Below are positions 16,318-59,680 of a stretch of DNA of 64,000 nucleotides, in pieces. The notes below the pieces were generated by a model. The model saw only the letters and a program-made list of their open reading frames with translations, was not told the DNA's origin and did not search any database. Position 1 is the stretch's first letter. Each line of letters opens with the position of its first letter. The position numbers were made by a program, and so were the translations under genes. The DNA lies in assembly GCA_030628905.1 (NCBI GenBank), contig DAOVQB010000001.1, forward strand, positions 41,375 to 105,374. Direction: 5' to 3'. This DNA is from Candidatus Eiseniibacteriota bacterium (GTDB taxonomy: Bacteria > Eisenbacteria > RBG-16-71-46 > CAIMUX01 > WJJG01).

Positions 16318-18162
16318 CTATCGTAGTAGAATCATCCGGGTAGACTCAACCAATCCGCCATTGATCTTGATCCGGCAGAAGTAGGCCCCGGCGGGGAGCG
16401 CAGCACCGTTCTCGGAGCGGCCATCCCACTGGACTACATGATTGCCGGCAGCCTGCAGTCCGACAAGGAGCAAGCGTAGCAAGCGGCCCTGCAGGTCACA
16501 GATTGCAACTTCCACTTGCGCCTGCTCTGCCAGACGGAAATGTATCGCCGCTCCACGGGACCCCTCCGCGCACGGGTTTGGGACGCATCTCAAGAATCCT
16601 GCATTCTGCACTGCGAACAGATCCTCATCTGCAAGACCTCCGGACTCCACATACTCATCCGCGCCCATATCGGGAGTGACCGGATCCCGGAGATCGTAGT
16701 CTATGTCGGTTGTGATCCCCACGAGCGGGGTTCCTGCTTCGATGCATGCGCTACCGGATTCCAGGTGAAGATCCTCCATATTCAAGCCCGGATCCCCAGA
16801 AAGCGAATGCTCATCTCGTGGCGCATATCCAGGGGCAGCCAGCAAGTCAGCAAGTGTATTGTAGAGCTCAGTGCCGATCATGGCCACAAAGCGGTTATCC
16901 AAAGGCTCCTCGGAATTGACACTCAGGAAATTGTAATCGCTTTCGGCGAATGCATCGGCAGCGTTGATCCTCAAGGCGTAGTGCCCGTCATCAGGATCAC
17001 CACCAGTTCTCTCATTGAGGATGATGTTGTTCTTGAGTTCATGATCGGTGAGTTCCCGTGAAGATCTCAAGCAGTAAGACTTTGTTCCCCTCGTATCAAC
17101 TCCTCCCATGTAAAGCGTATTGTAGAGGAAACGGTTGTTTGTGCCGTCACCTGAAGATATGTTAAGGCAAACGCTGCTGTTAGCTGATATTCCAGGAAAC
17201 AGATAAACGATGTTGTCGTAAACAACATTGCCATCGGAATTCCCGTACAAGTAAATCCCTTTTGAGCCGGACAATTCACTGTGCCTAAGATCGTGGATGT
17301 AATTGTGGTGGATATTAGTGCCGCTGTTAGTTCCGCCGACACTTATGCCATAAACTGAACTGCGAGCCATCTCGAAGGTTTGATAGATCTGATTTCCCTC
17401 TATGTCACAATCAACAACATTCGCATCGAGCTTGATCCCCATCTTCTGCCAGTCCCGGATGGTGTTGCCCGCGATGCGGAAATCGCGAAGTTCCATGCCG
17501 GTGTCGCAGTCGAGGAAAACACCGAAGGTGGAGCCTCCAACGATTTCGCAGTTAGAGAGAATGAAGCTATCCATTCCGAGGGATGGCTGGGGTACTTGAT
17601 AAGTGGAGCAATAGACAGGGGTGGACCAACCACTATCGTAGGGTGGCTCGCTGATGCTGTGGATGATTAGATTGTCTAGGCTGCAGTTATCAGAACCGTT
17701 TGATAGCCAGAAGACGAATACATCATCATCGGCGTTGCGATAGCCGCTGACGGTCATGTTCCTGGTATCCTGAACGGATTCATGGGGGCTGCCATTGAAG
17801 GTGATATGGTCAGAATTGTGGATACGGAAGGCAGAACTGAACTCGCCGGTGATGGTTACGTTGATTGCTACGATAGCATCAACATCGGGGCGAAATACCA
17901 CTGGACTCTCCGAGGTGGCATCAACATCAGAAATGATCAGATTGTCGTTCTCTTCGTAGACGCCATCTCGAATCAGAAAGGTAACGCCGCCATCGCCAAC
18001 GCCCTGCGTGTTGAGGTCCGCGATCGCGTCTTCCAGGGTTGCGTAGTGGGGCGATACGCCGCCAATGTACTTGAGCCCTGTGAGTTGAGCCTCTGCATGG
18101 GGAGGCGCCAGAATGACACAGAAGAGTCCAGCCAACAGCAACGCAAGTCTCTGAATATTCAT
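16318..18162 (-). CDS. Secreted right-handed parallel beta-helix repeat protein with a C-terminal sorting domain
   Basis: A signal peptide 'MNIQRLALLLAGLFCVILAPPHAEA' is present. Repeated 'G.N.I.(H/D)N.I' beta-helix rungs occur, for example 'NIHHNYIHDL', 'GNVVYDNIVY'. The CTD is 'GAYFCRIKINGGLVESTRMILLR'. Confidence 0.7.
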   Translation of the reverse strand: MNIQRLALLLAGLFCVILAPPHAEAQLTGLKYIGGVSPHYATLEDAIADLNTQGVGDGGVTFLIRDGVYEENDNLIISDVDATSESPVVFRPDVDAIVAINVTITGEFSSAFRIHNSDHITFNGSPHESVQDTRNMTVSGYRNADDDVFVFWLSNGSDNCSLDNLIIHSISEPPYDSGWSTPVYCSTYQVPQPSLGMDSFILSNCEIVGGSTFGVFLDCDTGMELRDFRIAGNTIRDWQKMGIKLDANVVDCDIEGNQIYQTFEMARSSVYGISVGGTNSGTNIHHNYIHDLRHSELSGSKGIYLYGNSDGNVVYDNIVYLFPGISANSSVCLNISSGDGTNNRFLYNTLYMGGVDTRGTKSYCLRSSRELTDHELKNNIILNERTGGDPDDGHYALRINAADAFAESDYNFLSVNSEEPLDNRFVAMIGTELYNTLADLLAAPGYAPRDEHSLSGDPGLNMEDLHLESGSACIEAGTPLVGITTDIDYDLRDPVTPDMGADEYVESGGLADEDLFAVQNAGFLRCVPNPCAEGSRGAAIHFRLAEQAQVEVAICDLQGRLLRLLLVGLQAAGNHVVQWDGRSENGAALPAGAYFCRIKINGGLVESTRMILLR

Positions 18163-18501
18163 AGCTGCAATCCTTTCCGCCTAGGGCGTTTGATGTAGCT
18201 CAGTGCTGCAGGCTCCACGCTGGCCCAGTGAGGACCAGTAAGACCGCAACATAATTGTACTACAGGGGTAGGGGAGGAGTCCATGAGCTAGCAGAACAGA
18301 TTGTGGTCGCAAGATTTGATCTGTGGCTGAGGCATTTCTGGTCCGGGAGGGCCCCGCCTACTCGGGGAATTCCTGATGGACCAGGTTGCCATTGCGTTAG
18401 CTGCTCTCAAACAGCTGCCGGAACTCGTGCGTCGAGGAGCTGTGCCTGCCGAGGGTCAGGGAGCGCAAGATGCTTTGCTGTATGCCTCAATGGCATGCGG
18501 G

Positions 18502-20130
18502 CTACTGAAGGAGCTCGTTCTTTACAAACAACGTTCTCTCCGTATTTGGAATATTCATCCTCTTCCAGTCGCAGGTCTCATAATTGTGCAAGAAGTCATG
18601 CCACTCGTCATCTTCCAATAATCTCGATTCGTTTTCTAGTTTTGTGCTGACAACAATCATATTTATTCTCTGCTCATCCAAGAATTCTCGGAAAGCATTC
18701 TTTTTAACGTAAACGCCCACACTACGGAATCTATCGCCAAAATAGATATCATACCCAGGCCGGGCCGCAAGGAGTCTGACTTCCTTTGCGATACTAAGTG
18801 ACCTGATTATGTTGATCGTCTCCATGTTGGCCATGCCTGCATTCAGTGTCAAATGACCTGGGGTATTGTACTCGCAGAGAAAAGGAGTAAAAGACAGTAC
18901 TATGAATGCTGTGAAAAGTTGTTTCATGCCGTTGGGATTCTTGGCCGCATTCCGGAGCACGAGAAGCGCTGCTCCACTGATGAGGAGAGTACACGGAAGC
19001 AGAAGGTAGTGAGTGCGGGGGAAAATAATAATACATGAGACAAGTCCTGGTATGGAGCATAATGCAATGTGCAGCAGGAAAATGCTGCGCTCTTGGATGG
19101 CCTTGTTGAGTCCGATGAACCAATCGTTCTTGAACCGCAATAGAAACGCTATCACAACTGCGGGAAATAGGAGACCCTCGGCTATCCAGAAGATCTTTGG
19201 GGTAATAGGCATGATGATGTTATAGTGAGGGAAAAGTAGTTTCGGAATAGTGAGTGGGGTTCGGAGGATGTTGTAACAAAGGTGATAGAGAAAATATAGA
19301 GGATTGGCCACGAAAGAAGAGAAGATGCTGTGAGCATTACCGAAGTGTTCCGAAGAGATAGTATCCCAATGAGTCCAGGGGTTAAGGTTGGAGTCGGTAC
19401 AAGTTGCCCAGTTTACAGAGAAGTGTTGGCGGAATGCCAGAAAGCTCCTATCGGCTTCTCCAGCAAAAGCAGGCAGGCCAAAGATGGCGATGAGAGCCGA
19501 AGAAGAACAAACAAATATGAGCAGAGCTAGCAGTTCTGAAGAAAAGTGAAATTGTCGGAAATTGCGAACAAGAAGGATGATGTAGAGGATGATCAAAAGC
19601 TCGAATGAGAGGATAAGATTAGGGCAGACGAAAGAAGACAGTAGCGAACCGAGAGAAACTAATAGTGTAGCGATAGTGGGCGATCGAAAGTGAGAGGCGA
19701 GAATGAAGAATGGCAGAAGCGTCAGAAGGGAGAAGTGCACGTACTTCGGGCGTAGAGGAAGATTAGAAAAGGAGATGAGGAAGTAGGCGGAGACGAGTAG
19801 GGCGGCAAGCGGGCGCAACTTGTAGGTTCTGAGGAACACGTAGATAAAGAGGGGAATGGCGATGGTGAGGAGACGATAGTTAAGATAAAAGAGGCTAACG
19901 GGGTCGGGCCGAAGTAGGGATAGCACGAAATACCACAGGGAATAGAGAGGTGCGAGTAGAGGGCCGGGAAGTCCGTGAATGGGGATTTGAAGGCCATTTG
20001 ACAGGTAAACACTTTCATCAGCTAGAACGATGTCCATGAAGCTCTCTAGCGCGAAGGTGAATTTGAAACCTGAGACCAGGAGGATTGCGACAGCAAAGAG
20101 ATCAAACCTGAAGGCGTTGGACTGCTTCAT
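18502..20130 (-). CDS. Polytopic integral membrane protein of low GC, possibly an O-antigen-polymerase or glycosyltransferase-like membrane enzyme, carried on an AT-rich island
   Basis: More than 10 hydrophobic segments are present. GC is markedly lower than in neighbouring genes and codon usage is A/T-rich. No soluble catalytic motif was recognised. Confidence 0.55.
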   Translation of the reverse strand: MKQSNAFRFDLFAVAILLVSGFKFTFALESFMDIVLADESVYLSNGLQIPIHGLPGPLLAPLYSLWYFVLSLLRPDPVSLFYLNYRLLTIAIPLFIYVFLRTYKLRPLAALLVSAYFLISFSNLPLRPKYVHFSLLTLLPFFILASHFRSPTIATLLVSLGSLLSSFVCPNLILSFELLIILYIILLVRNFRQFHFSSELLALLIFVCSSSALIAIFGLPAFAGEADRSFLAFRQHFSVNWATCTDSNLNPWTHWDTISSEHFGNAHSIFSSFVANPLYFLYHLCYNILRTPLTIPKLLFPHYNIIMPITPKIFWIAEGLLFPAVVIAFLLRFKNDWFIGLNKAIQERSIFLLHIALCSIPGLVSCIIIFPRTHYLLLPCTLLISGAALLVLRNAAKNPNGMKQLFTAFIVLSFTPFLCEYNTPGHLTLNAGMANMETINIIRSLSIAKEVRLLAARPGYDIYFGDRFRSVGVYVKKNAFREFLDEQRINMIVVSTKLENESRLLEDDEWHDFLHNYETCDWKRMNIPNTERTLFVKNELLQ

Positions 20131-20440
20131 GATCGACCCGAATCCTCAAAAGGCTTCCATGGACTTGCCTTGAAGAGTCAAGGAAGATATGGGCGTAAAG
20201 AAACTCGGGGGCAGACAAGGTACAAGCACTAGTCGCGATCAAAGGGGCCCTGGTGGACAAGGCCGGTGATGCAGGAATCAAAATGAGGTCTCTGACCAGA
20301 TGGAAAATGCCATCCCCAGAGAAATATCCCACGGATTGCCTTTGAGTTCAAGGGAAACAGGAAGCCTGCATTGGAGATGAAAAGGTAAACTATTGATCAT
20401 GACCAGCGGCAAAAGATTGGTGCTGCCGGCCAGATCTCCA

Positions 20441-21451
20441 TTAACGCCGCACTTGCTCGGCGCCGCGAGCCATGAGATCCGGGATGGGCAGGTGATAGGG
20501 ACATTTCTCCAGGCACTCGCCGCATGCCGTGCAGTCGGAATATTTCTTCTCCAGGCCTGCCAATCGTTCGAGGGCCCAATCGATCAGGTCGTAGCGCTCA
20601 TAGTAGGCATGGAGCAGCAGCAGCATCGGGATATGGAGCCCGTTCGGGCAGGGCATGCAGTAGCCGCAGCGGCGGCAGAAGCGGCCACCCCAGCGTTCCT
20701 TCTCACATGCGAGGGCGAGGAGCTCTGCATGGTTCGGTGGCCTGAGCCGCTCGCCGACCGCGGCGTTCTCCTCAACCTGAGCTATGCTGTCCATTCCTGG
20801 GATAACAACATCGATTCCCCGGGTTAGTTCGAAGCGCAGCGCTGCTGGCACATGGGTGAGCGCCCCGCCAGCGGCCGGTTTCATGGCAATGATCCCGACC
20901 CCTGCCTCCGTGGCAGCAGGGATGACATCATCGGACCATTCGATCTCAATCGGGTTGAACGGGTGCTGCACAGTATCGAAGGCGCCCGTCTGGATAGCCG
21001 CTATCAAGGCTGGCCGGCTGTGACTGGTGATGCCCAGGAAACCAACCTTGCCCTGCTCACGCGCTCGCGCCAGGGCTTCGTAAGCCCCACCCGGCGCCAG
21101 CACCTGCGCCAACTCCTTATCTGAGCCTATGGCATGGAGTTGATAGATATCGATGAAGTCCGTTTGAAGGTCGCGCAAGCTCGTCTCGATCTCCTTGGCC
21201 ATACCGGCAGCGTCGCGGGAGAGGGCCTTTGAGGCCAAAATGAACTCGCTGCGCCGGCTGCTCAGCGCGCGGCCGATCTTCTCCTCGCTGTCGGTGTACC
21301 CGCGGGCTGTGTCGATGAAGGTGATCCCGCAATCGAGCGCCTTGTGGAGCACGAGCGCGGAATCATCAAAGCTGAGACCTTGGATCGGAATGCCACCCAG
21401 GCCAACGACGGACACATCCAGGCTGGTCTTGCCCAAGATTCGCGTTTCCAT
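20441..21451 (-). CDS. Aldo/keto reductase with a C-terminal 4Fe-4S cluster-binding domain
   Basis: The AKR core is 'ILGKTSLDVSVVGLGG...FIDTARGY...'. The C-terminal Cys clusters are 'CRRCGYCMPCPNG' and 'CTACGECLEKCP'. Confidence 0.85.
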   Translation of the reverse strand: METRILGKTSLDVSVVGLGGIPIQGLSFDDSALVLHKALDCGITFIDTARGYTDSEEKIGRALSSRRSEFILASKALSRDAAGMAKEIETSLRDLQTDFIDIYQLHAIGSDKELAQVLAPGGAYEALARAREQGKVGFLGITSHSRPALIAAIQTGAFDTVQHPFNPIEIEWSDDVIPAATEAGVGIIAMKPAAGGALTHVPAALRFELTRGIDVVIPGMDSIAQVEENAAVGERLRPPNHAELLALACEKERWGGRFCRRCGYCMPCPNGLHIPMLLLLHAYYERYDLIDWALERLAGLEKKYSDCTACGECLEKCPYHLPIPDLMARGAEQVRR

Positions 21452-21607
21452 GGGGCCATTCTAGTATGCTTCGCCCGGGGAATCGAGGCTTGGAACGGCC
21501 AATCCTCTTGAGGAAGAGATATGGTATCATTAGTAGTTGGGTTGGCTGGTCATCCTGCATGGCTGGCGGTTCCACGGATCCAGGTCACACACCGAGGGGG
21601 AGCTGCG

Positions 21608-24478
21608 ATGATCACGAGACGCCTTTTGCTGTCAGTCATTTCAATCATGCTGCTCGCTGTGCTATTTGCATGGCCGTTCGCGGCCATGGGCAACGCGACG
21701 CCCTGCGAGGCCATGGGAAGCGCGACGCCCTACGAGGCCATCCCAAGCAGCTCACTTCATTCCCACGTCTTGGGCGCCCAAACGACGGCGCCCACCGGGC
21801 GAATTGCCATCAAGTTCACGGACGAGAGCGGCCTGGTGGTGGAAGGGGGTTGTCTCGATCCCTCATCCCCGCATGCACAGCGCATGACTGATTTCCTTGC
21901 GGCTACCGCCCCGGCCTTCAGCCTACAGCGCCACTTCTCGCGCACCACGGCTGAGCTTGAGGCCGAGCGCCTTTTCGCGGAGCAGCGGGTGGGAGGACGG
22001 CTGCCCAACCTCAATCGCTACGCGCACCTCGATCCCACGCGAGCGGTTTCCCGCGCAGAATTGATGGAGACCTTGGAAGCGTTGCTGACCGATCCGGCTA
22101 TTGAGACTGCTTTCCTAGAGCCGGTGGCGGTGCCAGCCGCGCTCGGGTTTGATGCCTTCCATGGCACCTTCGAGCCGGAGATTCACCTGATGAATTCGCC
22201 GTCGGGCCGGACCCCCGACTTCACCGCTCTCCAAGGCTACCTCGGCCCGGCACCCGATGGCGTGGATGCCGAAGGGGTCTGGGGTATTCCAGGCGGTCGC
22301 GGCCAGACCGTCCAGGTGCTCGATATCGAAGGCGCTTGGCTCTGGGAACATGAGGATCTGCCGGATCCTTTCTTCACGGCCGGCGGCGTAGTCGGGGATC
22401 TGGGCTGGCGCAACCATGGCACAGCCGTTGCTGGCGAGATCCGGGGCACCGCCAACGGCTATGGCGTGAGCGGAATCAGCCATGAGGTGCAGATTGGCGG
22501 TGTCTCCATCGCGGAGCTGTGGGTCGCCGATGCGATCAACACGGCTGCCGCCAATCTGGAGTTGGGCGGCATCTACCTAATAGAGCTTCACGCTCCTGGA
22601 CCCAACGCCACTGGCTCAGGTCAGTTTGGCTACGTATGCATGGAATACTGGCAAGACAACTTCGATGCCATCCAGATCGCCACGGCCTGCGGGCGCATCT
22701 GCTGCGAAGCGGCCGGCAATGGGGAACAGGACCTGGATGCCCCGGTCTATCAGGGCCTGTTTGACCGCAACGTGCGCGACTCAGGCGCGATCATCTGCGG
22801 CGCCTCAAACGGAAGTAGTCTCGATCCCGCCTGGTATACGAACTACGGATCGCGCGTGGATCTTCATGGCTGGGGCTACAGCGTGGTCACCTGCGGCTAC
22901 GGAGATCTGCAAGGTGGGGATGAGGAGGAGTGGTATACCGAATCGTTTGCGGGCACCTCGAGTGCCACGCCGATCGTCACCGGATCAGTGGCTTGCATTC
23001 AGGGATTGGTTAAGGATGCCTTTGGGATCTGTCTGGAAGCCAAACTCGCGCGCGATATCCTGGTAGATACCGGCACGCCGCAGACCGGCAGCCAGCATAT
23101 CGGCCCGCGACCGAACCTGACGGCAGCGTGGTCCTTGGCTCAGAACGGCGTTGGGGCGGTCTATGGTGTGATTACCGACCTGAGCACGGGTCTCCCAGTC
23201 CAGGACGTTTCGGTGGTTGCGCAGGAGACAGGGGCGTTTACACAATCGGCCGCTGACGGCAGCTACTGCCTGCCGTTCCTGGTCGGTACCTATGCGCTTG
23301 ACTATGATTCCTTCTTCTACGAGCCGACTAATGAACTCGTGTCAGTGACCTCCGGGGATAGCACTGAGGTGAATGTGGCTCTGGTACGCAGAGCCACTGC
23401 CGAGATCACAGGGAGAGTCCTAGAGGATGATGCCCACACGCCGCTTGCCGATGTGCGCGTGACTCCACTGGATGTACCCCTGCCGGGCACTGTCACGGGC
23501 CCCGGTGGCTACTGGTTGCTGGAGGGTGTCCCGGTGGATCGAACCTATGGCTTCCTGTTCGACGGGCTGCCCCTCTACGGCGCGGATTTCAGGGAGCTGC
23601 ACGTGGAGGAGGGCGATACTGCCATCGTCGACTTCAACGTACAGCTTGCGCATGTTGCGGAGGATTTCGAGCTGGATGACGGTGGCTTTACAGTCACCGG
23701 CGATCCGATATGGGCCCATGGTACGCCGACAGCGGGCGGGCCTGCGTCCGGCTTCAGCGGCGAGAAGTGCTGGGGCGTTGGAATGGACGACAACTACGGT
23801 GACAATGTATACGGATGCCTGATCAGTCCGGCTTTTGATTTCTCCGGAGAGGAAGAACTGCTGCTCAGCTTCCACTACTGGTGTGAAACCGAATCGGGTT
23901 TTGATGGCGCGAATCTGCAGATCTGGGATGCTGGCACATCCGACTGGGTGACACTGATACCCCTGATGGGCTATCCGACGATAACCATGAGCGGGGTAGG
24001 CTATGAGAGTGGATGGTCCGGATCGACCGGCGGTTGGATCGGGACGGTCTTTGACTTGACCGACTACATCTCCGAGGAGGTGACCTTCCGCGTTCAGTTC
24101 GGCTCTGACGGCGGCCTCAATGACCTGGGCTTCTGGGTGGATGATATTGCTTTCGACACAGGTGATGTCTTTTCTGGAGTGCCTGAGACGGTACTTGAGG
24201 TCGGTTTCGGAATCATGGGCCACGCCCCAAACCCGCTGCATTGCACCACCCGCATTACGCTGGCCCTGCCCAGTTCAGGCGAAGTGAGCGTGGCGGTCTT
24301 TGATGCACCGGGACGGCTGATTCGTACACTCTACGATGGGTCTCTACCTGCGGGCCGCTCGGAGTTGATCTGGGACGGCTGCGATGATCGAGGGGCGCTG
24401 GCTGTCAGTGGCGTCTACTTCATCCGGATGGATGCCAATGGGCGCTCTTCGTCGCGACGGGTCATTCTGACCCGTTAG
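21608..24478 (+). CDS. Secreted subtilisin-like serine protease (S8) with carboxypeptidase-regulatory-like and MAM-like domains and a C-terminal sorting domain
   Basis: The catalytic triad context is D 'VQVLDIEG', H 'NHGTAVAG', S 'GTSSATPIVTG'. A signal peptide 'MITRRLLLSVISIMLLAVLFAWPFAAMG' is present. The CTD is 'GVYFIRMDANGRSSSRRVILTR'. A 27-bp in-frame tandem duplication sits at 21683-21736. Confidence 0.85.
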   Translation: MITRRLLLSVISIMLLAVLFAWPFAAMGNATPCEAMGSATPYEAIPSSSLHSHVLGAQTTAPTGRIAIKFTDESGLVVEGGCLDPSSPHAQRMTDFLAATAPAFSLQRHFSRTTAELEAERLFAEQRVGGRLPNLNRYAHLDPTRAVSRAELMETLEALLTDPAIETAFLEPVAVPAALGFDAFHGTFEPEIHLMNSPSGRTPDFTALQGYLGPAPDGVDAEGVWGIPGGRGQTVQVLDIEGAWLWEHEDLPDPFFTAGGVVGDLGWRNHGTAVAGEIRGTANGYGVSGISHEVQIGGVSIAELWVADAINTAAANLELGGIYLIELHAPGPNATGSGQFGYVCMEYWQDNFDAIQIATACGRICCEAAGNGEQDLDAPVYQGLFDRNVRDSGAIICGASNGSSLDPAWYTNYGSRVDLHGWGYSVVTCGYGDLQGGDEEEWYTESFAGTSSATPIVTGSVACIQGLVKDAFGICLEAKLARDILVDTGTPQTGSQHIGPRPNLTAAWSLAQNGVGAVYGVITDLSTGLPVQDVSVVAQETGAFTQSAADGSYCLPFLVGTYALDYDSFFYEPTNELVSVTSGDSTEVNVALVRRATAEITGRVLEDDAHTPLADVRVTPLDVPLPGTVTGPGGYWLLEGVPVDRTYGFLFDGLPLYGADFRELHVEEGDTAIVDFNVQLAHVAEDFELDDGGFTVTGDPIWAHGTPTAGGPASGFSGEKCWGVGMDDNYGDNVYGCLISPAFDFSGEEELLLSFHYWCETESGFDGANLQIWDAGTSDWVTLIPLMGYPTITMSGVGYESGWSGSTGGWIGTVFDLTDYISEEVTFRVQFGSDGGLNDLGFWVDDIAFDTGDVFSGVPETVLEVGFGIMGHAPNPLHCTTRITLALPSSGEVSVAVFDAPGRLIRTLYDGSLPAGRSELIWDGCDDRGALAVSGVYFIRMDANGRSSSRRVILTR

Positions 24479-24842: not shown

Positions 24843-25649
24843 ATGAAAACAAGCATCCTTTTGGCTATGGCCTTCTCGTTGCTGTTGGCCTCAAACGCTT
24901 ATGCAGGTTGGATAATTGAATCTAATACTACAATGCAGGATGGAGAGAAGAGCAAGGAGGTTGTCTACATCCAGGACAACAAGATGAAGGTAGTCTCATG
25001 GGAAGGGCAAAGCATCGGGCAAATCATGATTTTCGATATTGAGAAGGGAACTATGTGCGTATGCATGCCTGAGCGAAAGGTCTACTTCTGTAGCACGCCA
25101 GATGAGCTCAAGAAGAGCTCAGAAGAGATGGCCAATAAAATGAAAGAGGCCATGATGGCCAAAATGCCTCCCGAGCAACGGGAGGCCTACAAAAAGATGA
25201 TGGAAATGGAAGCCGGGGAAAAAGAAGCCGCGCCTGAGAAAAAGGCTACTTATAAGGTAAAGAAAACCTCGGAGAAAGCCTACATAGCCGGCTTCTCGAC
25301 GGTAAAGCACCAGGTGTTTATGAACGGGGAACTGGACCAAGAGCTATGGCTCGCCTCCAAGGTGAAAGCTGTAGACGAGTTGGATATGGGCAAGATGATA
25401 AACATGATGAAGGGCATGTCGGATTCAGGAGAGCATGTGTCTTTTTCGTCCACCCAGGAGTGCCTGGAGCTTATGCGCCAGGGTTTTCCGATCAAGACGG
25501 TGCATTATGAAGAGGGTGAACAATCCCAGGTCGAGGAAGCCGTCCGGATTGAAAAAAAGAAGATCCCGGCCTCTGAGCTCAAGCCGCCGGAAGGCTACAA
25601 GGAACTGACCATGGAGGAAGTCTACGGCATGATGAGAGGCGGGCACTGA
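24843..25649 (+). CDS. Secreted or lipoprotein-like protein of low GC, DUF4412-like (Bacteroidota-type), Lys/Glu/Met-rich
   Basis: The signal peptide is 'MKTSILLAMAFSLLLASNAYA'. The mature start 'GWIIESNTTMQDGEK...' resembles DUF4412 lipoproteins. GC is about 45% against a genome background above 60%. Confidence 0.5.
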   Translation: MKTSILLAMAFSLLLASNAYAGWIIESNTTMQDGEKSKEVVYIQDNKMKVVSWEGQSIGQIMIFDIEKGTMCVCMPERKVYFCSTPDELKKSSEEMANKMKEAMMAKMPPEQREAYKKMMEMEAGEKEAAPEKKATYKVKKTSEKAYIAGFSTVKHQVFMNGELDQELWLASKVKAVDELDMGKMINMMKGMSDSGEHVSFSSTQECLELMRQGFPIKTVHYEEGEQSQVEEAVRIEKKKIPASELKPPEGYKELTMEEVYGMMRGGH

Positions 25650-28701: not shown

Positions 28702-29691
28702 TCACGAGAACTCCACCCCGCACCTGTCGGCGATGCGCCGCGCCAGGACAAGAAAGTCCCTTTCGCAGTCGCGCACAGCCTGCATGTGCGCACCAATTGC
28801 GCGATCGGCAGGCTTCAGGTGAAACATCGGTTTGCGGGCCTCCATGGCGAGCGGCATCAGGCTGCGGTAATGCTTCAGCGTGGCTAGTTTCTGCTCATCC
28901 TGTTCCATGGCCGGCGCATCAGTTGCCCGGTCTCCAAGAACCGAGAACCGATACTCGCCGGGGATGCGATCCATCCAGCGCGAGTAGGCTTGTACCGGAC
29001 GGTCGAGCCGCACCGCGTGCTGTAGCACGACGTAGCCCGCGGGCTGCATCTCGCCCTTCGGTAGGTCCAACTCGGGTTCGGGGTTCTTGTCATAACGCTC
29101 TTGCCACTCCTCACGCCATTTGCGAAGCGTCGGGCCAAGGTTGCGAAGGCCCTGGAGGGAGAAGAGGTCGGGAGCCAAAGGAACCACCACGTGCTCGGCC
29201 GCGATGAGGGCAGCGCGGTTGATGGCGCCCAGGTTCGGGCCGACATCGATCAGGAGCAGATCCGCTTCGCGATCCATTACCGCCATAGCCATCAGACGGT
29301 GGAAGGCCGAAATGACGCGGAATGCGGCTACCTGCCGGTCAAGGCAGTTCGGCCACTCGCGCGAGAGCCGATCCTCGAAGGTGGACAGCCCCAGATCGCC
29401 GATAACGAGCCCCAAGTCATCGGCGATGTCTTCCACATGAGGTAGAGAGACGTCTCCAGTTCCGTCGAGCATCGGCTGTACGGCCCCCAGCACGGTATCG
29501 GGATGCTTTCCGTCCGGCCATAGATCCTCCAGCCGTTCCTCCGCGAGGAACATGGAGCTGAGGTTGGCCTGAGGGTCCAGATCGGCTGCCAGGACCCGGA
29601 CTCCACGGTTCGCGAACATCCATGCCAGGTGGTAGACGAGCGTGGTCTTGCCGACACCACCCTTATTATTGAACAAGGCGATGGTCGTCAT
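28702..29691 (-). CDS. ParA/MinD-superfamily P-loop ATPase with an extended C-terminal region of about 100 aa
   Basis: The deviant Walker A is 'NNKGGVGKTTLVYHLA'. 'ADLDPQANLS' and the Walker B region 'LLLIDVGPNLG' are present. The start ATG overlaps the stop of the upstream AlbA_2 gene (ATGA). Confidence 0.8.
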   Translation of the reverse strand: MTTIALFNNKGGVGKTTLVYHLAWMFANRGVRVLAADLDPQANLSSMFLAEERLEDLWPDGKHPDTVLGAVQPMLDGTGDVSLPHVEDIADDLGLVIGDLGLSTFEDRLSREWPNCLDRQVAAFRVISAFHRLMAMAVMDREADLLLIDVGPNLGAINRAALIAAEHVVVPLAPDLFSLQGLRNLGPTLRKWREEWQERYDKNPEPELDLPKGEMQPAGYVVLQHAVRLDRPVQAYSRWMDRIPGEYRFSVLGDRATDAPAMEQDEQKLATLKHYRSLMPLAMEARKPMFHLKPADRAIGAHMQAVRDCERDFLVLARRIADRCGVEFS

Positions 29692-30869
29692 GGGTGCCTC
29701 CGGATGGTCGTGAGCACTGCCGTGTCCTGGAAATCGAACTCGGGGGGCGGATTGCCATTGTCTGCAAGAGCCTTTCTCGCCATTGGGATGCCCACACCGA
29801 AGCGTTGGATATACCCGAGCACGGCCAGGGCTTCAGCGACGAGGGGATTGCGGTAGTCCGTGACCCCTGTACCGAAGTTCTCCGGCGTAACCTGGCCGTA
29901 TAACCCGCCGGGGCTGTGGATCTCCACTCGGTCGGAAAACCAGTAGACATGCACGGGCGCGTTGCTCGTCTCGTAGTTGCGGTGGACCAGGGCGTTGCGA
30001 ACAAGTTGCTGCAATGCAACGGCCGCATAGTCTGGCTGCCGCTTCTCGCGCGCACCCGAAGTGATATCGGTCGCGACTGAGATGTTCAAATCGATAAGAT
30101 CATCAAGCTGTCGCGCAACCTCGTTCAAGGGGCCAACAAGGCGCTTCTGATGCTTGATTGGATCAGCCAGCTCCGTACCGTCGATGCCAAGAAACTGGAT
30201 ATACGCACTTGGAATCCAGCGGAGAGGGTCTCTCCCCGCCACGAGCACGGCACCATAGCATGGTGTCTCGCCGGTGATGAGTCGAAGTGAGGCAAGCTGC
30301 TGCTTGACGTGCCAGTCGTTCGCTGTCAGGACCTCTTCTGCGAATGCGGAGGGCAAATACTCCCGCTGTAGAAAATTGAGGTCGAGGTCGTCGAGCGTGG
30401 CGTCGAGGGCCCGCCGGCGATCGAAAGGAAGATCCGCCGCGCGCCGTCGCTCGATGAGACGCCGCTCATTGTCGGGCGTTGCTTCACGCGTGCTCGGCCC
30501 CACACGTACCCAGCAACGACCCTGGTAGCGAACAGGTGGGTCGCGCGAGGGGTCCACCTGGACAATCGCCACTTTGCAGCCATCGAGAACTCGCTGGTCG
30601 ACTTCCATCGAGGGAATCGGGAGAATCCCACTGTTGCGCATGTCAGCCAGAAGTTTCAGAAGGTCATCATCGATCTCGATGTTCGCACAGGTTCCGTCAT
30701 TCTCGACGCCGACAAAGACAATGCCCGGTTTGCCATCACCGGGAAGATCATTCGCGAACGCACAAATCGCCTTGCGGATAGCGCTGCGGTCCCCTGCAGT
30801 CCGCTTCCGCTCAGCACTTGGCGATTCCAGGTCCTTCAACAGATCGAGAAGTCGGGCATCGTCAAGCAT
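29688..30869 (-). CDS. AlbA_2 (Schlafen-like 'divergent AAA') plus HATPase_c_4 two-domain protein, a COG2865-type putative transcriptional regulator/ATP-binding protein
   Basis: The N-terminus is 'LLDLLKDLESPSAERKRT...IRKAICAFANDLPGDGKPGIVFVGVENDGT' (AlbA_2). The C-terminus is 'LQQLVRNALVHRNYETSNAPVHVYWFSDRVEIHSPGGL' (HATPase_c_4 / RecG-C-like). Confidence 0.75.
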   Translation of the reverse strand: MLDDARLLDLLKDLESPSAERKRTAGDRSAIRKAICAFANDLPGDGKPGIVFVGVENDGTCANIEIDDDLLKLLADMRNSGILPIPSMEVDQRVLDGCKVAIVQVDPSRDPPVRYQGRCWVRVGPSTREATPDNERRLIERRRAADLPFDRRRALDATLDDLDLNFLQREYLPSAFAEEVLTANDWHVKQQLASLRLITGETPCYGAVLVAGRDPLRWIPSAYIQFLGIDGTELADPIKHQKRLVGPLNEVARQLDDLIDLNISVATDITSGAREKRQPDYAAVALQQLVRNALVHRNYETSNAPVHVYWFSDRVEIHSPGGLYGQVTPENFGTGVTDYRNPLVAEALAVLGYIQRFGVGIPMARKALADNGNPPPEFDFQDTAVLTTIRRHP

Positions 30870-41632: not shown

Positions 41633-42841
41633 CTAAACGAGTGCGGAGCAAAGCACCTTGCGCACCGCCAGGATCACATCCTCCACATCCCGATTGCTCA
41701 AACCCGGCGAAAGCGGAAGCGAAAGCGTACGTTCTCCCACCCACTCGGCATTCGGGAAATCCCCCTCCCCGTAACCGTAGCGCTCGCGGTAGTAGGGGTG
41801 GAGGTGCAGGGCACGGTAATGGACGCCAGTGCCGATGCCCTCTGCGTGAAGCGCTTGGAGCACCTGGTCCCGGCTGATGCGCAGCTGATCCAGATCGAGC
41901 AAGATGATGAAGAGATGCCGTGCGTGGCGATCTCCTTGCGCTGGCTCCGGCGGAATCCGGAGCGGCAGATCCGACAGGCCCTCTGTGTACCGGCGCCAAA
42001 TTTCATCCCGGCGCTTCAGATTCGCCTCGACGCGGGCCAGCTGGTGGATCCCGAGGGCGGCTTGCATATCCGTCATGTTGTACTTGAATCCTGGGAATGT
42101 CACCTCATAGTGCCGGAAGCCTTCGTCCGAGTAGCGCTTCCATGCATCCCGCGAGAGCCCGTGAAGGCCGGCCACCTTGATCCAGTCGGCGATCTGGGGA
42201 TCATCGGTACTTACCATCCCACCTTCGCCGGTGATGACATTCTTGGTTACATAGAAGCTGAAGACCGTGCAATCGCTGATGCTGCCGATCTTGCGTCCCT
42301 GGTGGGCGGCTTCAATGGCATGGGCGGCATCCTCCACGATACGCAGCTTCCGGTCGCGAGCCAGCGCCTGGAGCGCTGTCATGTCTGCCGTCCGCCCAGC
42401 GAAGTGCACGGGGAGTAGCGCGCGTGTGCGCTGGGTCATCTTCTCGCTGGCGCGCTCCGCATCGATACAGAGCGTCTCGCGATCGCAGTCTGCAAAGACC
42501 GGCGTGGCGCCAAGGTGTGTGATGACATTGGCCGTCGAGGCAAAGGTCATCGGGCAAGTGATCACCTCATCACCTGGCTTGACCCCGATTGCGATCATTG
42601 AGAGGTGCAGTCCTGCCGTGCAGGAATTGAGTGCCATGGCGTAGCGCGAGCCCACGTACTCACAGAAGGCTTTCTCAAAGGCAGCTACGCGGGGGCCGGT
42701 GCCCAGCCAGCCGGAGCGGATGGTGGCCTCCACCTCCCGGATTTCCTCTTCGCGGATGTCCGGCTTCCCAAAGATGAGGTACTCGGTCCGCACAGGCCGG
42801 CCACCATCGATCGCCAGTCTCGCGCTGCCATCGTCTGCCAT
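41633..42841 (-). CDS. DegT/DnrJ/EryC1/StrS-family PLP-dependent sugar aminotransferase
   Basis: The translation 'LIFGKPDIREEEIREVEATIRSGWLGTGPRVAAFEKAFCEYVGSRYAMALNSCTAGLHLSMIAIGVKPGDEVI' matches the family, and the Lys-containing 'FSFYVTKNV' is present. The start is taken as the internal Met. The ORF is open up to 42937. Confidence 0.85.
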   Translation of the reverse strand: MADDGSARLAIDGGRPVRTEYLIFGKPDIREEEIREVEATIRSGWLGTGPRVAAFEKAFCEYVGSRYAMALNSCTAGLHLSMIAIGVKPGDEVITCPMTFASTANVITHLGATPVFADCDRETLCIDAERASEKMTQRTRALLPVHFAGRTADMTALQALARDRKLRIVEDAAHAIEAAHQGRKIGSISDCTVFSFYVTKNVITGEGGMVSTDDPQIADWIKVAGLHGLSRDAWKRYSDEGFRHYEVTFPGFKYNMTDMQAALGIHQLARVEANLKRRDEIWRRYTEGLSDLPLRIPPEPAQGDRHARHLFIILLDLDQLRISRDQVLQALHAEGIGTGVHYRALHLHPYYRERYGYGEGDFPNAEWVGERTLSLPLSPGLSNRDVEDVILAVRKVLCSALV

Positions 42842-42984
42842 CTGCGCCTCCTCGTGCTCCTTCCCGCCCGCATGGGGTACACCCTTCTGCCCTGTCCGTT
42901 CCCGCCTGCGTGGAGTACACACTTCTGCCTTGCGCACTACTCGCCCGGCCTCTGCTGTGTTTCTCTGGTTTGCGTCCTCTTCTA

Positions 42985-44007
42985 CTACCCGCGGTCCTCA
43001 CGGAAGGATCGGATCCATTGGGCCAGCCGGTGCACAGGGTCTGTCTTCTCCCAGCGGGCGAAGCGGGTCTTGACTCCGCCGAAGGATTCCTTGAAGGACT
43101 CGACGGCGGCGATCCCCGCGCTCGGGAGCATGTCGTAGATCCTGCATCCGTCTCGGATTGCGTCTTGGATGATCCGATCCTGGATCAACACATTGGGGCG
43201 CAGATTGCGCGCGTCGTGGTCGAAGTAGCCCGCCTGATAGTGCGCGATGCCATTCCAGCAGCACGTGAAAGTGCCCCCGATGACGCGACCCTCGAAGCGC
43301 GCTACATACAGTTTCACTGATTCTCCACCCACGCTCATCATGGCCTGGTAGAAGCCAAGCGGATAGATCAGCCGCGGCCGTTGCTCCCATGTCCGCATGC
43401 GCTTGAGATAGAGTTCATACACGCAGCGCACATCGGCATCCTCGCGTGAAAGCTCCACATGGACACCCTTGCGGGTCAATCTGCGGATATCATTCCGTTT
43501 GCGGGTCGTTAGGATCCCATTCCAGAAGTCCTCGACGGTTCGCGGCAGCTCCAACAGGTGCGTGGTTTCCCAGGCTCGTGAGACACCGGTGCTGGCAGGA
43601 GCGTCCGGGCCTTCAGCCTGAGTCGTGGCATCGGCTCCTTCCTGAAAGGGATTGCCGATCACGACTAGTGATCCAGATTTGCGGGCAAGGTTTCTGATCA
43701 CCGCATCCCACACCAGTGGGGATGTGGTTGGGATCGGGCCTCCATAGAGAAAGGGAAAAGAGCTGTGTAGCGTGCTCAGGAGCCCGCCCAGGCGGCGCCA
43801 CCGGAAGAGAGGCAATGCATATGCCTCGCCATCGATCTCAAGGATCCGGGAGAGGTCGCTCAGTTGAGGGAAGGCCGACGTGAGGATGCGCGCCCACGTG
43901 CGGGTGTGATAAAAAGTGGCCTCCGCGCGGTTCTCGAGGATGTTCTGGAAGCGGGCATCGTCGATTCCCTGCTCCGCGCGCCATTGCCGAGTGCCGCCTC
44001 CACCCAT
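42985..44007 (-). CDS. FemAB-like / GNAT-fold acyltransferase (Acetyltransf_6-like)
   Basis: It is a ~340-aa protein with a duplicated GNAT-like architecture ('...LYVARFEGRVIGGTFTCCWNGIAHYQAGYFD...'). It sits next to a DegT aminotransferase, consistent with amino-sugar N-acylation. Confidence 0.55.
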   Translation of the reverse strand: MGGGGTRQWRAEQGIDDARFQNILENRAEATFYHTRTWARILTSAFPQLSDLSRILEIDGEAYALPLFRWRRLGGLLSTLHSSFPFLYGGPIPTTSPLVWDAVIRNLARKSGSLVVIGNPFQEGADATTQAEGPDAPASTGVSRAWETTHLLELPRTVEDFWNGILTTRKRNDIRRLTRKGVHVELSREDADVRCVYELYLKRMRTWEQRPRLIYPLGFYQAMMSVGGESVKLYVARFEGRVIGGTFTCCWNGIAHYQAGYFDHDARNLRPNVLIQDRIIQDAIRDGCRIYDMLPSAGIAAVESFKESFGGVKTRFARWEKTDPVHRLAQWIRSFREDRG

Positions 44008-58842: not shown

Positions 58843-59680
58843 TCTGCACGTTCACTCGAGCGCCTCCGACGGCCGCTTCCCGCCGCGCGAGGTGATCCGC
58901 CGCGCCTACGGAGCGGGCTTGTCCGCAGTTGCCTTGACCGATCACGATACGGTTTCCGGTTTGGAGGAAGCCAAGTGCGAGGCCGACCGGCTGGGGATCA
59001 CATTCGTGCCCGGCTGCGAAATCAGCGTTCATCTCCAGAGCCGGGAGATCCATCTACTGGCCTATTATTTCGACGCCAAGCACCCCGAACTCCTTGGGCT
59101 GCTGAGCACGATTCATGAGATGCGCAAGGAAAGGGTCCGGCGGATCGTGCGGAAGCTCAACGACCTGGGACTGCCATTGCAGACCAGCGATGTAGAGACT
59201 GAGGCTTGCGTTTCCGCATCCATTGGACGCAACCACGTTGCGAAGGCGCTCGTTCGCAAGGGCCTAGTGGCAAGCCGGAGAGAGGCCTTCGCATCCTATC
59301 TTGGCGACGGACGAAGCGCTTGCGTCCCAATGGAAACCCCAAAGCCAACAGCTGTGTTGGACATAGTGTGGTCGGTAGGAGGTGTGCCGGTCATCGCCCA
59401 TCCCGGACTATATGGGCTGGAGGATCCCGAGGCTTTCTTCAGAGATTGGGACCTGGGCGGAGTCGAAGTGGGGCATCCCTCCCAGGCAGCAGACGTGCGC
59501 GCAGTGCTGAAGCAGTGGGCCGCCAAGCGCGGCCTCCTGGTTACTGGTGGCTCGGACTGGCATGGTGACGAGTCTGCGCGGTTGGGGATTGGGTGTGAGA
59601 GAGTGGGGTTGGATCTGCTTGACGCACTTCGCGCTCTCCGCCGCTCCCGGGACGATCCGCACGGTCGCCGGCGGCCCTAG
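58802..59680 (+). CDS. Stand-alone PHP-domain phosphoesterase (TrpH/YciV-like), overlapping the 3' end of dnaE in another frame
   Basis: 'ADLHVHSSASDGRFPPREVIRRAYGAGLSAVALTDHDTVSGLEEA...' and '...VIAHPGLYGL...GGSDWHG' carry the PHP metal-ligand His/Asp motifs. Confidence 0.75.
   Translation: MGSVRGWEVAEGADLHVHSSASDGRFPPREVIRRAYGAGLSAVALTDHDTVSGLEEAKCEADRLGITFVPGCEISVHLQSREIHLLAYYFDAKHPELLGLLSTIHEMRKERVRRIVRKLNDLGLPLQTSDVETEACVSASIGRNHVAKALVRKGLVASRREAFASYLGDGRSACVPMETPKPTAVLDIVWSVGGVPVIAHPGLYGLEDPEAFFRDWDLGGVEVGHPSQAADVRAVLKQWAAKRGLLVTGGSDWHGDESARLGIGCERVGLDLLDALRALRRSRDDPHGRRRP

Follow-up and report, generated by a model that had tools for sequence, protein, structure and literature searches.

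Background

Membrane glycosyltransferases of the GT-C class are marked by a catalytic Asp after the first transmembrane helix (TM1) and by a lipid-linked donor (PMC11127046), and some characterised GT-C enzymes carry no Pfam domain and have partner genes that are unlinked (PMC8035078). The described enzymes closest to the one analysed here are the Gtr-type or three-component enzymes (GtrC-like, GT136 ORF12, YfhO, GtlB and CsdB), the PMT/ArnT-like enzymes (GT39/GT83) and the oligosaccharyltransferases STT3, AglB and PglB (GT66), in the last of which a GT-C transmembrane module is followed by a C-terminal extracytoplasmic alpha/beta domain. As to base composition, enterobacterial O-antigen genes (wzx/wzy/gtr) are typically low in GC. 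A statement to this effect is not found in PMC7685785.

Enzymes of this kind set the structure of surface antigens and phage receptors. Here we describe a low-GC patch in a 64-kb stretch of DNA (hereafter, the window) from the barely studied phylum Eisenbacteria, whose single membrane-protein gene would, if our reading is true, pass from a "hypothetical protein" to a predicted envelope-glycan-modifying enzyme.

Results and discussion

Base composition of the patch and its surroundings

A window-wide GC scan confirmed that GC falls between a beta-helix gene and an aldo-keto reductase gene: positions 18200-20440 have 48.8% GC versus 59.4% for the whole window, the lowest value of all 2,241-nt windows (z = -6.4, taking as reference the 2,241-nt windows outside 16-21 kb). 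The gene within this patch (18502-20130, reverse strand) has 46.8% GC, the lowest among the 44 ORFs of the window, rather than the 40-45% of the original prediction, and the background is about 59-60% instead of above 60%. The trough is also wider than the ~2.2 kb first proposed, since it extends over the part of the beta-helix gene that encodes the first, N-terminal three quarters of its product (50.3% GC in 16800-18162, and 49.4% in 16800-20440 as a whole). Both flanks had been described as AT-rich; this holds for the 310-nt intergenic stretch upstream of the gene, on the aldo-keto reductase side (20131-20440, reverse strand, 50.3% GC), but not for the 339-nt stretch between the gene and the beta-helix gene (18163-18501, reverse strand), which at 57.5% is near background. 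The upstream stretch presumably serves as promoter and 5' leader, with a GAGGA some 11 nt ahead of the ATG; neither a consensus promoter nor an Rfam match was found in 20131-20440. No terminator-like site, tRNA or repeat was found in 18163-18501, and no Rfam family at either border.

The GC3s of the gene is 0.534, compared with an ORF mean of 0.669 (SD 0.059; z about -2.3), and only one ORF has a lower value, namely, the 120-aa ORF at 59206-59568, which we take to be spurious. The dinucleotide signature (delta*) of 18501-20500 is the second most deviant among the 2-kb windows (z = 2.3). Given its own protein sequence and the codon usage of the window, the gene is expected to have 52.2% GC (z = -2.2 for the observed-minus-expected difference), and of its 12.6-point GC deficit about 7 points (57%) are due to the amino acids that it encodes, codon choice adding about 5. 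The low GC of the gene has two sources, a Leu/Phe/Ile/Asn-rich protein and a real codon-usage anomaly. The practical value for the window is modest: a striking composition dip receives an ordinary explanation, over half of it being amino-acid composition.

The neighbouring genes encode, by their Pfam matches, RecQ, the beta-helix protein, the aldo-keto reductase and an S8 protease with sorting tails, the last being two genes away. The beta-helix gene (16318-18162, reverse strand) encodes a secreted protein with a FlgD_ig/T9SS-type C-terminal sorting domain (Pfam FlgD_ig and TIGR04183 matches). We considered a two-gene island that includes this gene and rejected it: the codon deviation is small (52.5% GC versus 55.8% expected from its amino acids, a codon effect of -3.2 points), the part encoding the C-terminal sorting domain has a normal GC of 58.9%, and the gene never co-occurs with relatives of its neighbour in the other loci sampled. 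The beta-helix gene is probably native rather than part of an island.

Predicted GT-C fold of the gene product

The ORF at 18502-20130 encodes 542 aa, and its product is identical to KAY24_13360, a "hypothetical protein" of a Candidatus Eisenbacteria MAG. Pfam, NCBIfam, PHROGs and a PDB profile search gave nothing usable for its annotation; the sole Pfam match, PSI_8, was judged spurious. Both hydropathy and the structural model indicate a polytopic protein with ~11 TM helices, which bears out the earlier estimate of more than 10, and the hydropathy and the distribution of K/R charges fit the positive-inside rule. The predicted topology has a cytoplasmic N-terminus, with the conserved motifs described below and a C-terminal alpha/beta domain in the periplasm; the K/R distribution places the loops with D33, D38-E39, R228, H283, N287 and H374 outside in this predicted topology.

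An AlphaFold model computed from a 9-sequence alignment has a pLDDT of 80.4 and a pTM of 0.82, with low confidence in residues 303-345 and 410-431. Its top three Foldseek matches are STT3 and PglB, with probabilities of 0.99-1.0 over the full length (542-571 aligned columns). The predicted model shows the features by which the GT-C fold is recognised: a TM bundle with the first extracytoplasmic loop formed as juxtamembrane helices, a number of TM helices within the range of 7-13 with conserved residues that are extracytoplasmic in the predicted topology, and acidic residues (D33, D38 and E39) in the loop after TM1, 9-15 residues past that helix. The protein had been thought to have no recognisable soluble domain; the model, by contrast, has an alpha/beta domain of high confidence at residues ~434-542 (pLDDT 87), and two periplasmic loop regions, residues 29-77 and 218-310, are helical. 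The C-terminal domain (residues 434-542, encoded by 18505-18831, reverse strand) is similar to the globular domain at the C-terminus of AglB/STT3 and of AftA, and has no WWDYG motif. Since no sequence link to any characterised GT-C family was found, the GT-C assignment rests on predicted structure. We consider it reasonably probable that the protein is an integral-membrane glycosyltransferase of the GT-C fold, taken together with the mechanism proposed below and with transfer or drift as the account of its low GC.

The protein resembles the PMT/ArnT-like enzymes in its ~11 TM helices and, as in PMTs, an inside N-terminus and outside C-terminus. PMTs have a DE motif in loop 1, of which the D38-E39 pair in the predicted loop 1 is reminiscent. 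However, neither the protein (E <= 0.1) nor 85 of its relatives (E <= 0.01) match PMT (PF02366) or PMT_2 (PF13231), the protein has no MIR domain, and its C-terminal alpha/beta domain is missing from PMTs and ArnT. At the profile level no similarity to PMT_2 was seen, hhalign of the family against one PMT_2 protein giving a probability of 0.5%. With the Gtr-type enzymes the protein shares the polytopic, here predicted, GT-C fold and the acidic residues after TM1, and relatives of the gene adjoin GtrA- or GtrB-like genes in glycan clusters (see below); it differs from them in having no detectable sequence similarity, a motif set of its own (R-P-E, A-F-x-Q-H, H...N and P-R-x-H-Y) together with the AglB-like C-terminal domain, and no partner genes nearby in the window. 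As for STT3, AglB and PglB, the likeness lies in the predicted arrangement of a GT-C TM module and then a C-terminal extracytoplasmic alpha/beta domain, whereas the protein here counts 11 TM helices against their 13, and its C-terminal domain, at about 110 aa, is much smaller.

A large family with conserved motifs predicted to be periplasmic

A word-indexed homologue search returned 9 proteins only, and its profile version no more. An exhaustive HMM search, however, found at least 2,073 representatives of 50%-identity clusters at E <= 1e-3 (968 at E <= 1e-30), which rules out the tiny family that the word-indexed search implied. Among the best 150 listed members, nearly all are full-length matches of about 480-640 aa, with a few fragments and one protein of 863 aa. 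The members are spread patchily over many phyla and their relationships are star-like, identities being 30-43% throughout; for instance, Chloroflexota members are 32-40% identical to one another, no closer than to members from other phyla, and the nearest homologue of the Eisenbacteria protein is 43% identical to it. One member bears the UniRef name [quoted passage not shown]. Pfam gave weak matches to DUF6541 in 3 of 85 members and to DUF6056 in one, and nothing else, and a PDB profile search with the family was empty. The family is large and has no name in the libraries searched (Pfam, NCBIfam, PHROGs and PDB sequences), so that, if the assignment is true, a large and widespread GT-C family is flagged.

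Motif conservation was counted over 154 members. Residues D33, D38-E39, Y63, R228, A232, H283 and N287 each occur in at least 96% of these, and all are located in predicted periplasmic segments. The first periplasmic loop (residues 33-67; 19930-20034, reverse strand) contains D33, D38-E39, Y42, P61-L-Y63 and W66-Y67, with D33 found in 149, D38 in 152, E39 in 148 and Y63 in 153 of the 154 members. By analogy, its acidic residues just after TM1 are predicted to form the catalytic site, a position that agrees with that of the catalytic Asp in GT-C enzymes (PMC11127046). Between TM7 and TM8, a large helical region in the periplasm (residues 218-310; 19201-19479, reverse strand) carries R228 (151/154), A232-F-x-Q-H236 (A232 in 154/154), H283 (152/154) and N287 (153/154), and the periplasmic turn between TM9 and TM10 carries P371-R-T-H374-Y375 (19006-19020, reverse strand; P in 148, H in 141 and Y in 149 of the 154 members).

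Genomic contexts of relatives and proposed mechanism

The loci of relatives were collected with a 12-sequence alignment, which restricts the sample to members that have the pattern AF[GR]QHFS[LV]N. In Tolypothrix (locus L022), a GtrA_DPMS_TM and Glycos_transf_2 fusion gene adjoins the family gene upstream, followed by an NAD-dependent epimerase gene. Locus L001 encodes a GtrB-like GT2 of 335 aa that ends in two TM helices, along with a GT4, an epimerase and a TylF methyltransferase; in L002 and L003 the family gene is flanked by GT4 genes inside a Wzm/Wzt cluster; and in Magnetominusculus (L012) it shares an operon with genes for a GT-C protein of the PMT_2 family, a DegT aminotransferase and a radical SAM protein. 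A "Wzt" cluster that blast gave as common to L002, L020, L021 and L023 was discarded as generic ABC-ATPase similarity, a real Wzm/Wzt pair being present only in L002/L003.

The occurrence of some members in glycan clusters beside GtrA/GtrB-like genes suggests, by analogy, that the family modifies periplasmic glycans using a polyprenyl-phosphate sugar donor. On the model of ArnT, PMT and the Gtr-type enzymes, a GtrB/ArnC-like GT2 would make a polyprenyl-phosphate-linked sugar on the cytoplasmic face and a GtrA-like protein would flip it; the lipid-linked sugar would then bind in the groove that the TM bundle forms with the first periplasmic loop, and D33 and D38-E39 after TM1 would activate the acceptor hydroxyl. 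The acceptor, located outside the cytoplasm, would be a glycan of the cell envelope or possibly a protein that is secreted, and the C-terminal domain would probably help to hold it. A linked polyprenyl-phosphate glycosyltransferase and flippase, as in three-component systems, are found in the relatives L022 and L001 and not in the window, where queries with the GtrA-GT2 fusion, the GtrB-like GT2 and the Wzt-type ABC ATPase had no blastp match among all ORFs. Since the gene stands alone here, the genes for donor synthesis, if any, must lie elsewhere. The analysis shows the base composition, the modelled fold, the family, its motifs and the surroundings of related genes; for this gene we infer the donor type and the acceptor, as we do its topology and the transfer event discussed below.

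The Foldseek matches to STT3 and PglB raise another reading, namely, that the enzyme is oligosaccharyltransferase-like and moves a preassembled glycan en bloc from polyprenyl-diphosphate to a protein or other acceptor. Its C-terminal domain would then act as in AglB, PglB and STT3, and possible acceptors are the secreted proteins with FlgD_ig tails whose genes lie to either side (the beta-helix protein, and the S8 protease two genes off). However, the WWDYG motif is absent from all 154 members (0/154 with the regular expression WWD[YWF]G), Pfam STT3 matches neither the protein nor 85 relatives, none of the family loci has an obvious acceptor gene of the oligosaccharyltransferase type, and the family contexts, including the GtrA-GT2 fusion in L022, point to monosaccharide donors linked to polyprenyl monophosphate. 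We regard en bloc transfer as quite unlikely. In a more speculative view, the family might stand as a sister group, within bacteria, to the oligosaccharyltransferases, with WWDYG lost or never present.

The original prediction had left the choice between a polymerase/ligase-type and a glycosyltransferase-like enzyme, and of these the GT-C model favours the latter. An O-antigen/EPS polymerase (Wzy) or a WaaL-type ligase would account for a polytopic protein with a large periplasmic loop and for the presence of relatives in polysaccharide clusters, but neither the protein nor 85 of its relatives have a Wzy_C (PF04932) or O-antigen-ligase Pfam match, the structure matches include no Wzy, WaaL or SEDS structure, and the cluster in L002 exports through a Wzm/Wzt ABC transporter, a pathway that needs no Wzy. 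This reading is therefore highly improbable.

An altered motif in the Eisenbacteria copy

The family motif R-P-E, in the periplasmic turn between TM5 and TM6, is near-invariant (R in 148 and E in 149 of 154 members). In the Eisenbacteria protein its site is occupied by C-P-N (TGC CCT AAT; residues 169-171, 19618-19626, reverse strand), and this is the only one of the 154 members without both R and E; W244 is also lost. The loss of R-P-E and W244 suggests that this copy may have altered or reduced activity. Alternatively, judging from the sequence, C-P-N may be a natural active-site variant with a changed donor or acceptor specificity. Under a broader reading, the protein would belong to an undescribed GT-C family with its own motif set (D-x4-DE, R-P-E, A-F-x-Q-H, H-x3-N and P-R-x-H-Y, plus the AglB-like C-terminal domain) that travels as a mobile low-GC cassette, with the C-P-N copy as a specificity variant; we hold this combination to be doubtful. 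At the codon level, the TGC of C169 is one G:C-to-A:T transition away from the Arg codon CGC, while a single transition of this type separates the AAT of N171 from GAT (Asp, as 3 members have at this site) and two changes separate it from the majority Glu codon.

Horizontal transfer or a native gene

The composition of the patch had been taken to indicate horizontal acquisition. This is plausible though unproven: the claim was overstated in that 57% of the GC deficit is an amino-acid effect and marks of mobility are lacking, and it finds indirect backing in the patchy distribution of the family and in the composition of its members elsewhere. In five independent loci, namely, the window, L014, L018, L022 and L023 (z = -3.5, -5.6, -2.8 and -6.1 for the last four, respectively), GC3 is at its lowest in the family gene, and in L014, L018, L020, L022, L023 and L024 it lies 10-18 GC points under its flanks. 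Although GC, codon usage and dinucleotides all deviate as expected for an island, the locus has no integrase, transposase, IS or flanking repeats, only short repeats at chance level; no tRNA was found in the 64 kb, and no relatives were found in plasmid and phage collections. The homology search proposed for finding the family and its donor revealed the large GT-C-like family and no donor, because the nearest relative is as distant as 43% identity. For the flanking genes, relatives in the collections reach at most 40% identity for the aldo-keto reductase (from metagenome contigs) and 61% for RecQ (from mixed phyla), and the best RecQ relative (P0155, locus L105), the one locus examined, shares no neighbours with the window.

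The gene could instead be native or anciently resident, its low GC being due to the AT-rich codons of a hydrophobic protein and to AT-biased mutation in a gene that is poorly expressed or losing function. Amino acids alone predict 52.2% GC, i.e., 7 of the 12.6 points; the neighbouring beta-helix and DUF4412 genes are low in GC too, mostly through amino-acid composition; island hallmarks are absent and the flank at 18163-18501 has normal GC; and the loss of R-P-E, with C169 one G:C-to-A:T transition from Arg CGC and N171 likewise from the minority Asp codon GAT, would fit a gene that is losing function. Against this, the ORFs at 27172, 39297 and 44069, none of which is a polytopic membrane protein by Pfam, have a GC2 of 0.37-0.39 and yet keep a GC3s of 0.70-0.75, and decay is at odds with an ORF that is intact over 542 aa with all motifs besides R-P-E preserved. 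Moreover, the dinucleotide signature is atypical as well, and equally extreme GC3 deficits are seen in unrelated genomes, a recurrence that mobility explains more easily than independent decay. A native origin is possible, then, if rather unlikely, and drift towards AT under weak selection has to be reckoned with as an alternative to transfer.

The best explanation of the codon-usage anomaly is that the gene, from a family moving between phyla, was acquired horizontally in the fairly recent past. The family may spread as a low-GC cassette of one gene by which surface glycans are decorated anew, which would, if true, be a simple route to surface variation. In this it is like the O-antigen genes, as a patchily distributed envelope-glycan enzyme with GC and GC3 well under those of the host, but it differs from them in standing alone, with housekeeping and secreted-protein genes of no related function around it, rather than in a cluster or prophage. 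In one of the relatives' loci, L020, an IS605 OrfB/TnpB gene lies close to the family gene.

The AT-rich gene encodes a predicted GT-C glycosyltransferase of a large family

The ORF at 18502-20130 (-) encodes a 542-residue protein identical to KAY24_13360, a 'hypothetical protein' of a Candidatus Eisenbacteria MAG, whose locus was recovered three times from one sample set. Pfam, NCBIfam and PHROGs gave no annotation for it, and a profile search of PDB sequences returned nothing. With nine homologues as input, AlphaFold gave a confident model (mean pLDDT 80.4, pTM 0.82) that is weak at residues 303-345 and 410-431, and a Foldseek search with this model ranked STT3 and PglB first (probability 0.99-1.0), upholding the 'glycosyltransferase-like' option of the original prediction. 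The other option, a polymerase or ligase, is rejected, as no Wzy, WaaL or SEDS protein was among the structure-search matches. Hydropathy and the model agree on about 11 TM helices. The first loop (residues 29-77) is acidic; a helical periplasmic region is predicted at residues 218-310, and in the model residues 434-542 form a C-terminal alpha/beta domain. Because the N-terminus is basic, it is probably cytoplasmic by the positive-inside rule.

A word-indexed search found only nine relatives. An exhaustive HMM search gave far more: with sequences clustered at 50% identity, 2,073 cluster representatives matched at E <= 1e-3, of which 968 reached E <= 1e-30. Of the 2,073, the best 150 are nearly all full-length matches of about 480-640 aa; the exceptions are a handful of fragments and a protein of 863 aa. 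Conserved in the 154 aligned members (numbering of the window protein) are D33, D38-E39 and Y42; P61-L-Y63 and W66-Y67; R101; R169-P-E171; R228, A232-F-x-Q-H236, H283 and N287; P371-R-x-H-Y375; and P416, K476 and D507. All of these positions except R101 fall in predicted periplasm-facing segments, and the acidic cluster lies directly after TM1, where the proposed catalytic Asp of GT-C enzymes sits (PMC11127046). The WWDYG motif of oligosaccharyltransferases (OSTs) occurs in none of the 154 members. Pfam searches of 85 members yielded just weak matches to DUF6541 (three members) and DUF6056 (one member), hhalign of the family against a genuine PMT_2 protein detected no similarity, and a Candidatus Vecturithrix member carries the UniRef name 'Glycosyltransferase RgtA/B/C/D-like domain-containing protein'. 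When tested against PMT/PMT_2, STT3 and Wzy/WaaL, the family belonged to none of them; its predicted fold, topology and acidic loop-1 motif place it in the GT-C superfamily. The closest known systems are PMT/ArnT and OSTs by structure, and the GT-C enzymes of Gtr-type or multi-component periplasmic glycosylation by function. The protein belongs to a large family that is unnamed in the libraries searched.

Genomic context of the relatives and proposed mechanism

Scanning GTDB species genomes with a sequence pattern recovered 16 family loci, from Nitrospirota (Magnetominusculus), Chloroflexota, Cyanobacteria, a deltaproteobacterium and an Actinomycetota MAG. Four context types among these loci and metagenome contigs point to glycan biosynthesis. 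In Tolypothrix (L022), a GtrA plus GT2 fusion lies immediately upstream of the family gene and an NAD-dependent epimerase gene downstream. Locus L001 encodes a GtrB-like GT2 of 335 aa that ends in two TM helices, together with a GT4, an epimerase, a TylF methyltransferase and three further polytopic proteins; in L002/L003, the family gene is flanked by GT4 genes within a Wzm/Wzt cluster that also holds GT2 and epimerase genes; and in Magnetominusculus (L012) it shares an operon with genes for a PMT_2 GT-C protein, DegT and a radical SAM enzyme. In Magnetominusculus and in one metagenome contig (L009 517-11264, L012 8301-13449 and L001 2097-8759), the neighbours of the family gene code for proteins roughly 500-715 aa long, of which several are polytopic membrane proteins. 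One neighbour is a PMT_2 GT-C protein and the others have no Pfam match, an arrangement that suggests multi-GT-C glycan loci.

The family gene is solitary among unrelated genes in this window and in L014, L017, L018, L020, L021, L023 and L024. Where the family gene falls below its flanks in GC (L014, L018, L020, L022, L023 and L024), it usually stands alone, surrounded by housekeeping genes. No GtrA, GtrB or Wzm/Wzt homologue was found in the 64-kb window; a DegT/EryC1 sugar aminotransferase gene and a FemAB-type (Acetyltransf_6) gene, possibly of an amino-sugar pathway, lie at 41633-44007 (-), about 21 kb from the GT-C gene. In Gram-positive systems, GT-C enzymes that lack Pfam domains are documented, and so are partner genes at unlinked sites (PMC8035078).

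The analysis shows the fold, the motifs, the contexts of the relatives and a predicted outward orientation of the motifs; the mechanism is inferred. In it, a GtrB/ArnC-like GT2 would make a polyprenyl-phosphate sugar, a GtrA-like protein would flip it, and the enzyme would bind this donor between loop 1 and the TM bundle. The main functional rival, OST-like en bloc transfer of a glycan to protein, draws support from the Foldseek ranking, the AglB-like domain and the genes for secreted proteins close by on both sides, but the missing WWDYG motif and the GtrA-GT2 neighbour in Tolypothrix count against it. Under the preferred single-sugar transfer, D33 and D38-E39 would activate the acceptor hydroxyl, the C-terminal domain might help to bind the acceptor, and the sugar would pass to an envelope glycan outside the cytoplasm.

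Composition of the region

The predicted GC trough at 18200-20440 is borne out: its GC content is 48.8%, against 59.4% for the whole window, the minimum among all same-size windows (z = -6.4 relative to windows outside 16-21 kb). However, the gene itself has 46.8% GC rather than the 40-45% claimed; of the two spacers said to be AT-rich, 20131-20440 is (50.3%) and 18163-18501 is not (57.5%); and the trough is wider than proposed, running across most of the beta-helix gene (50.3% at 16800-18162). GC at codon positions 1, 2 and 3 is 0.50, 0.36 and 0.55 in the GT-C gene, and 0.65, 0.45-0.50 and 0.69-0.74 in the flanking genes.

To separate protein composition from codon choice, we recoded every protein of the window at the codon frequencies of the window itself. 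The GC content thus expected for the GT-C gene is 52.2%, so that about 7 of its 12.6 missing GC points are due to the amino-acid make-up of the protein (17% Leu, 9% Phe, 8.5% Ile, 5% Asn). Synonymous codon choice accounts for about 5.4 points (z = -2.2 versus other ORFs). Its GC3s is 0.534 (window ORF mean 0.669, SD 0.059); the only lower value belongs to a 120-aa ORF at 59206-59568, taken to be spurious, and three other ORFs with similarly low second-position GC hold a GC3s of 0.70-0.75. In dinucleotide signature, 18501-20500 deviates (z = 2.3) more than every other 2-kb window but one. The strong skews in GC and AT at 19-20 kb are as would be expected from a T-/C-rich coding strand for hydrophobic residues. 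Hence the dip is real, beyond chance, yet over half of it simply follows from the type of protein encoded, and the compositional 'island' means less than its appearance suggests. A second dip (49.4%) coincides with a DUF4412 gene at 24843-25649 (+); the amino acids of its product would by themselves give 51.8% GC, which makes this dip mostly compositional.

Origin of the gene

We consider horizontal acquisition of the gene slightly favoured, at a little better than even chance, and assign most of the remainder to intrinsic AT-richness with AT-biased drift. The codon-level anomaly and the atypical dinucleotide signature argue for acquisition. So does a pattern across the family, in several unrelated phyla: within its locus, the family gene ranks lowest in GC3 in the window, L014 (z = -3.5), L018 (-5.6), L022 (-2.8) and L023 (-6.1), and it lies 10-18 GC points under its flanks in six loci (L014, L018, L020, L022, L023 and L024). 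Also in favour, the family gene matches its flanks in the Magnetominusculus clade, where the orthologues are evidently inherited vertically, being 69-95% identical; the five Chloroflexota members are 32-40% identical to one another, no closer than to members from other phyla; and one cyanobacterial copy lies near an IS605 OrfB/TnpB gene. On the other side, neither tRNA or integrase genes nor IS elements or flanking repeats were found at the window locus, and plasmid and phage collections contained no family relative. A homology search, proposed as a route to the donor lineage, reached a nearest relative just 43% identical to the window protein, so no donor can be named. Among the neighbours, best identities in the collections are at most 40% for the aldo-keto reductase and 61% for RecQ, with no synteny, and the lineage has no close relatives there; the RecQ value marks it as deeply isolated.

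A variant of the R-P-E motif

The window protein is the sole one of the 154 members to lack both R169 and E171: the near-invariant R-P-E is replaced by C-P-N (TGC CCT AAT, 19618-19626 (-)). Residue 244 is C instead of the usual W. The C169 codon (TGC) is one G:C-to-A:T transition away from the Arg codon CGC. A single transition of this kind also separates the N171 codon (AAT) from GAT, the Asp codon that three members have at this site, but it is two changes away from the majority Glu codon; these changes run in the same direction as the low GC of the gene. The other active-site motifs are preserved and the reading frame is unbroken over its full length, and C-P-N may represent a specificity variant or early relaxed selection.

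Other features of the window

No tRNA gene was detected in the 64 kb, and no Rfam family scored above its gathering score. A Schlafen AlbA_2/HATPase_c_4 gene adjoins a ParA/MinD-like AAA_31 ATPase gene at 28702-30869 (-); unrelated to the GT-C gene, the two could be a defence or mobile-element-type pair. The secreted beta-helix protein (16318-18162 (-)) and a secreted S8 protease with a MAM-like domain (21521-24478 (+)) both end in a C-terminal FlgD_ig/T9SS-type sorting domain. The beta-helix part of the former gene has about 50% GC and its sorting tail a normal 58.9%. Near the 5' end of the protease ORF, a tandem 27-nt repeat (21673-21726 (+), two copies, 81% identical) encodes a duplicated peptide, MGNATPCEA / MGSATPYEA, in the signal-peptide region.
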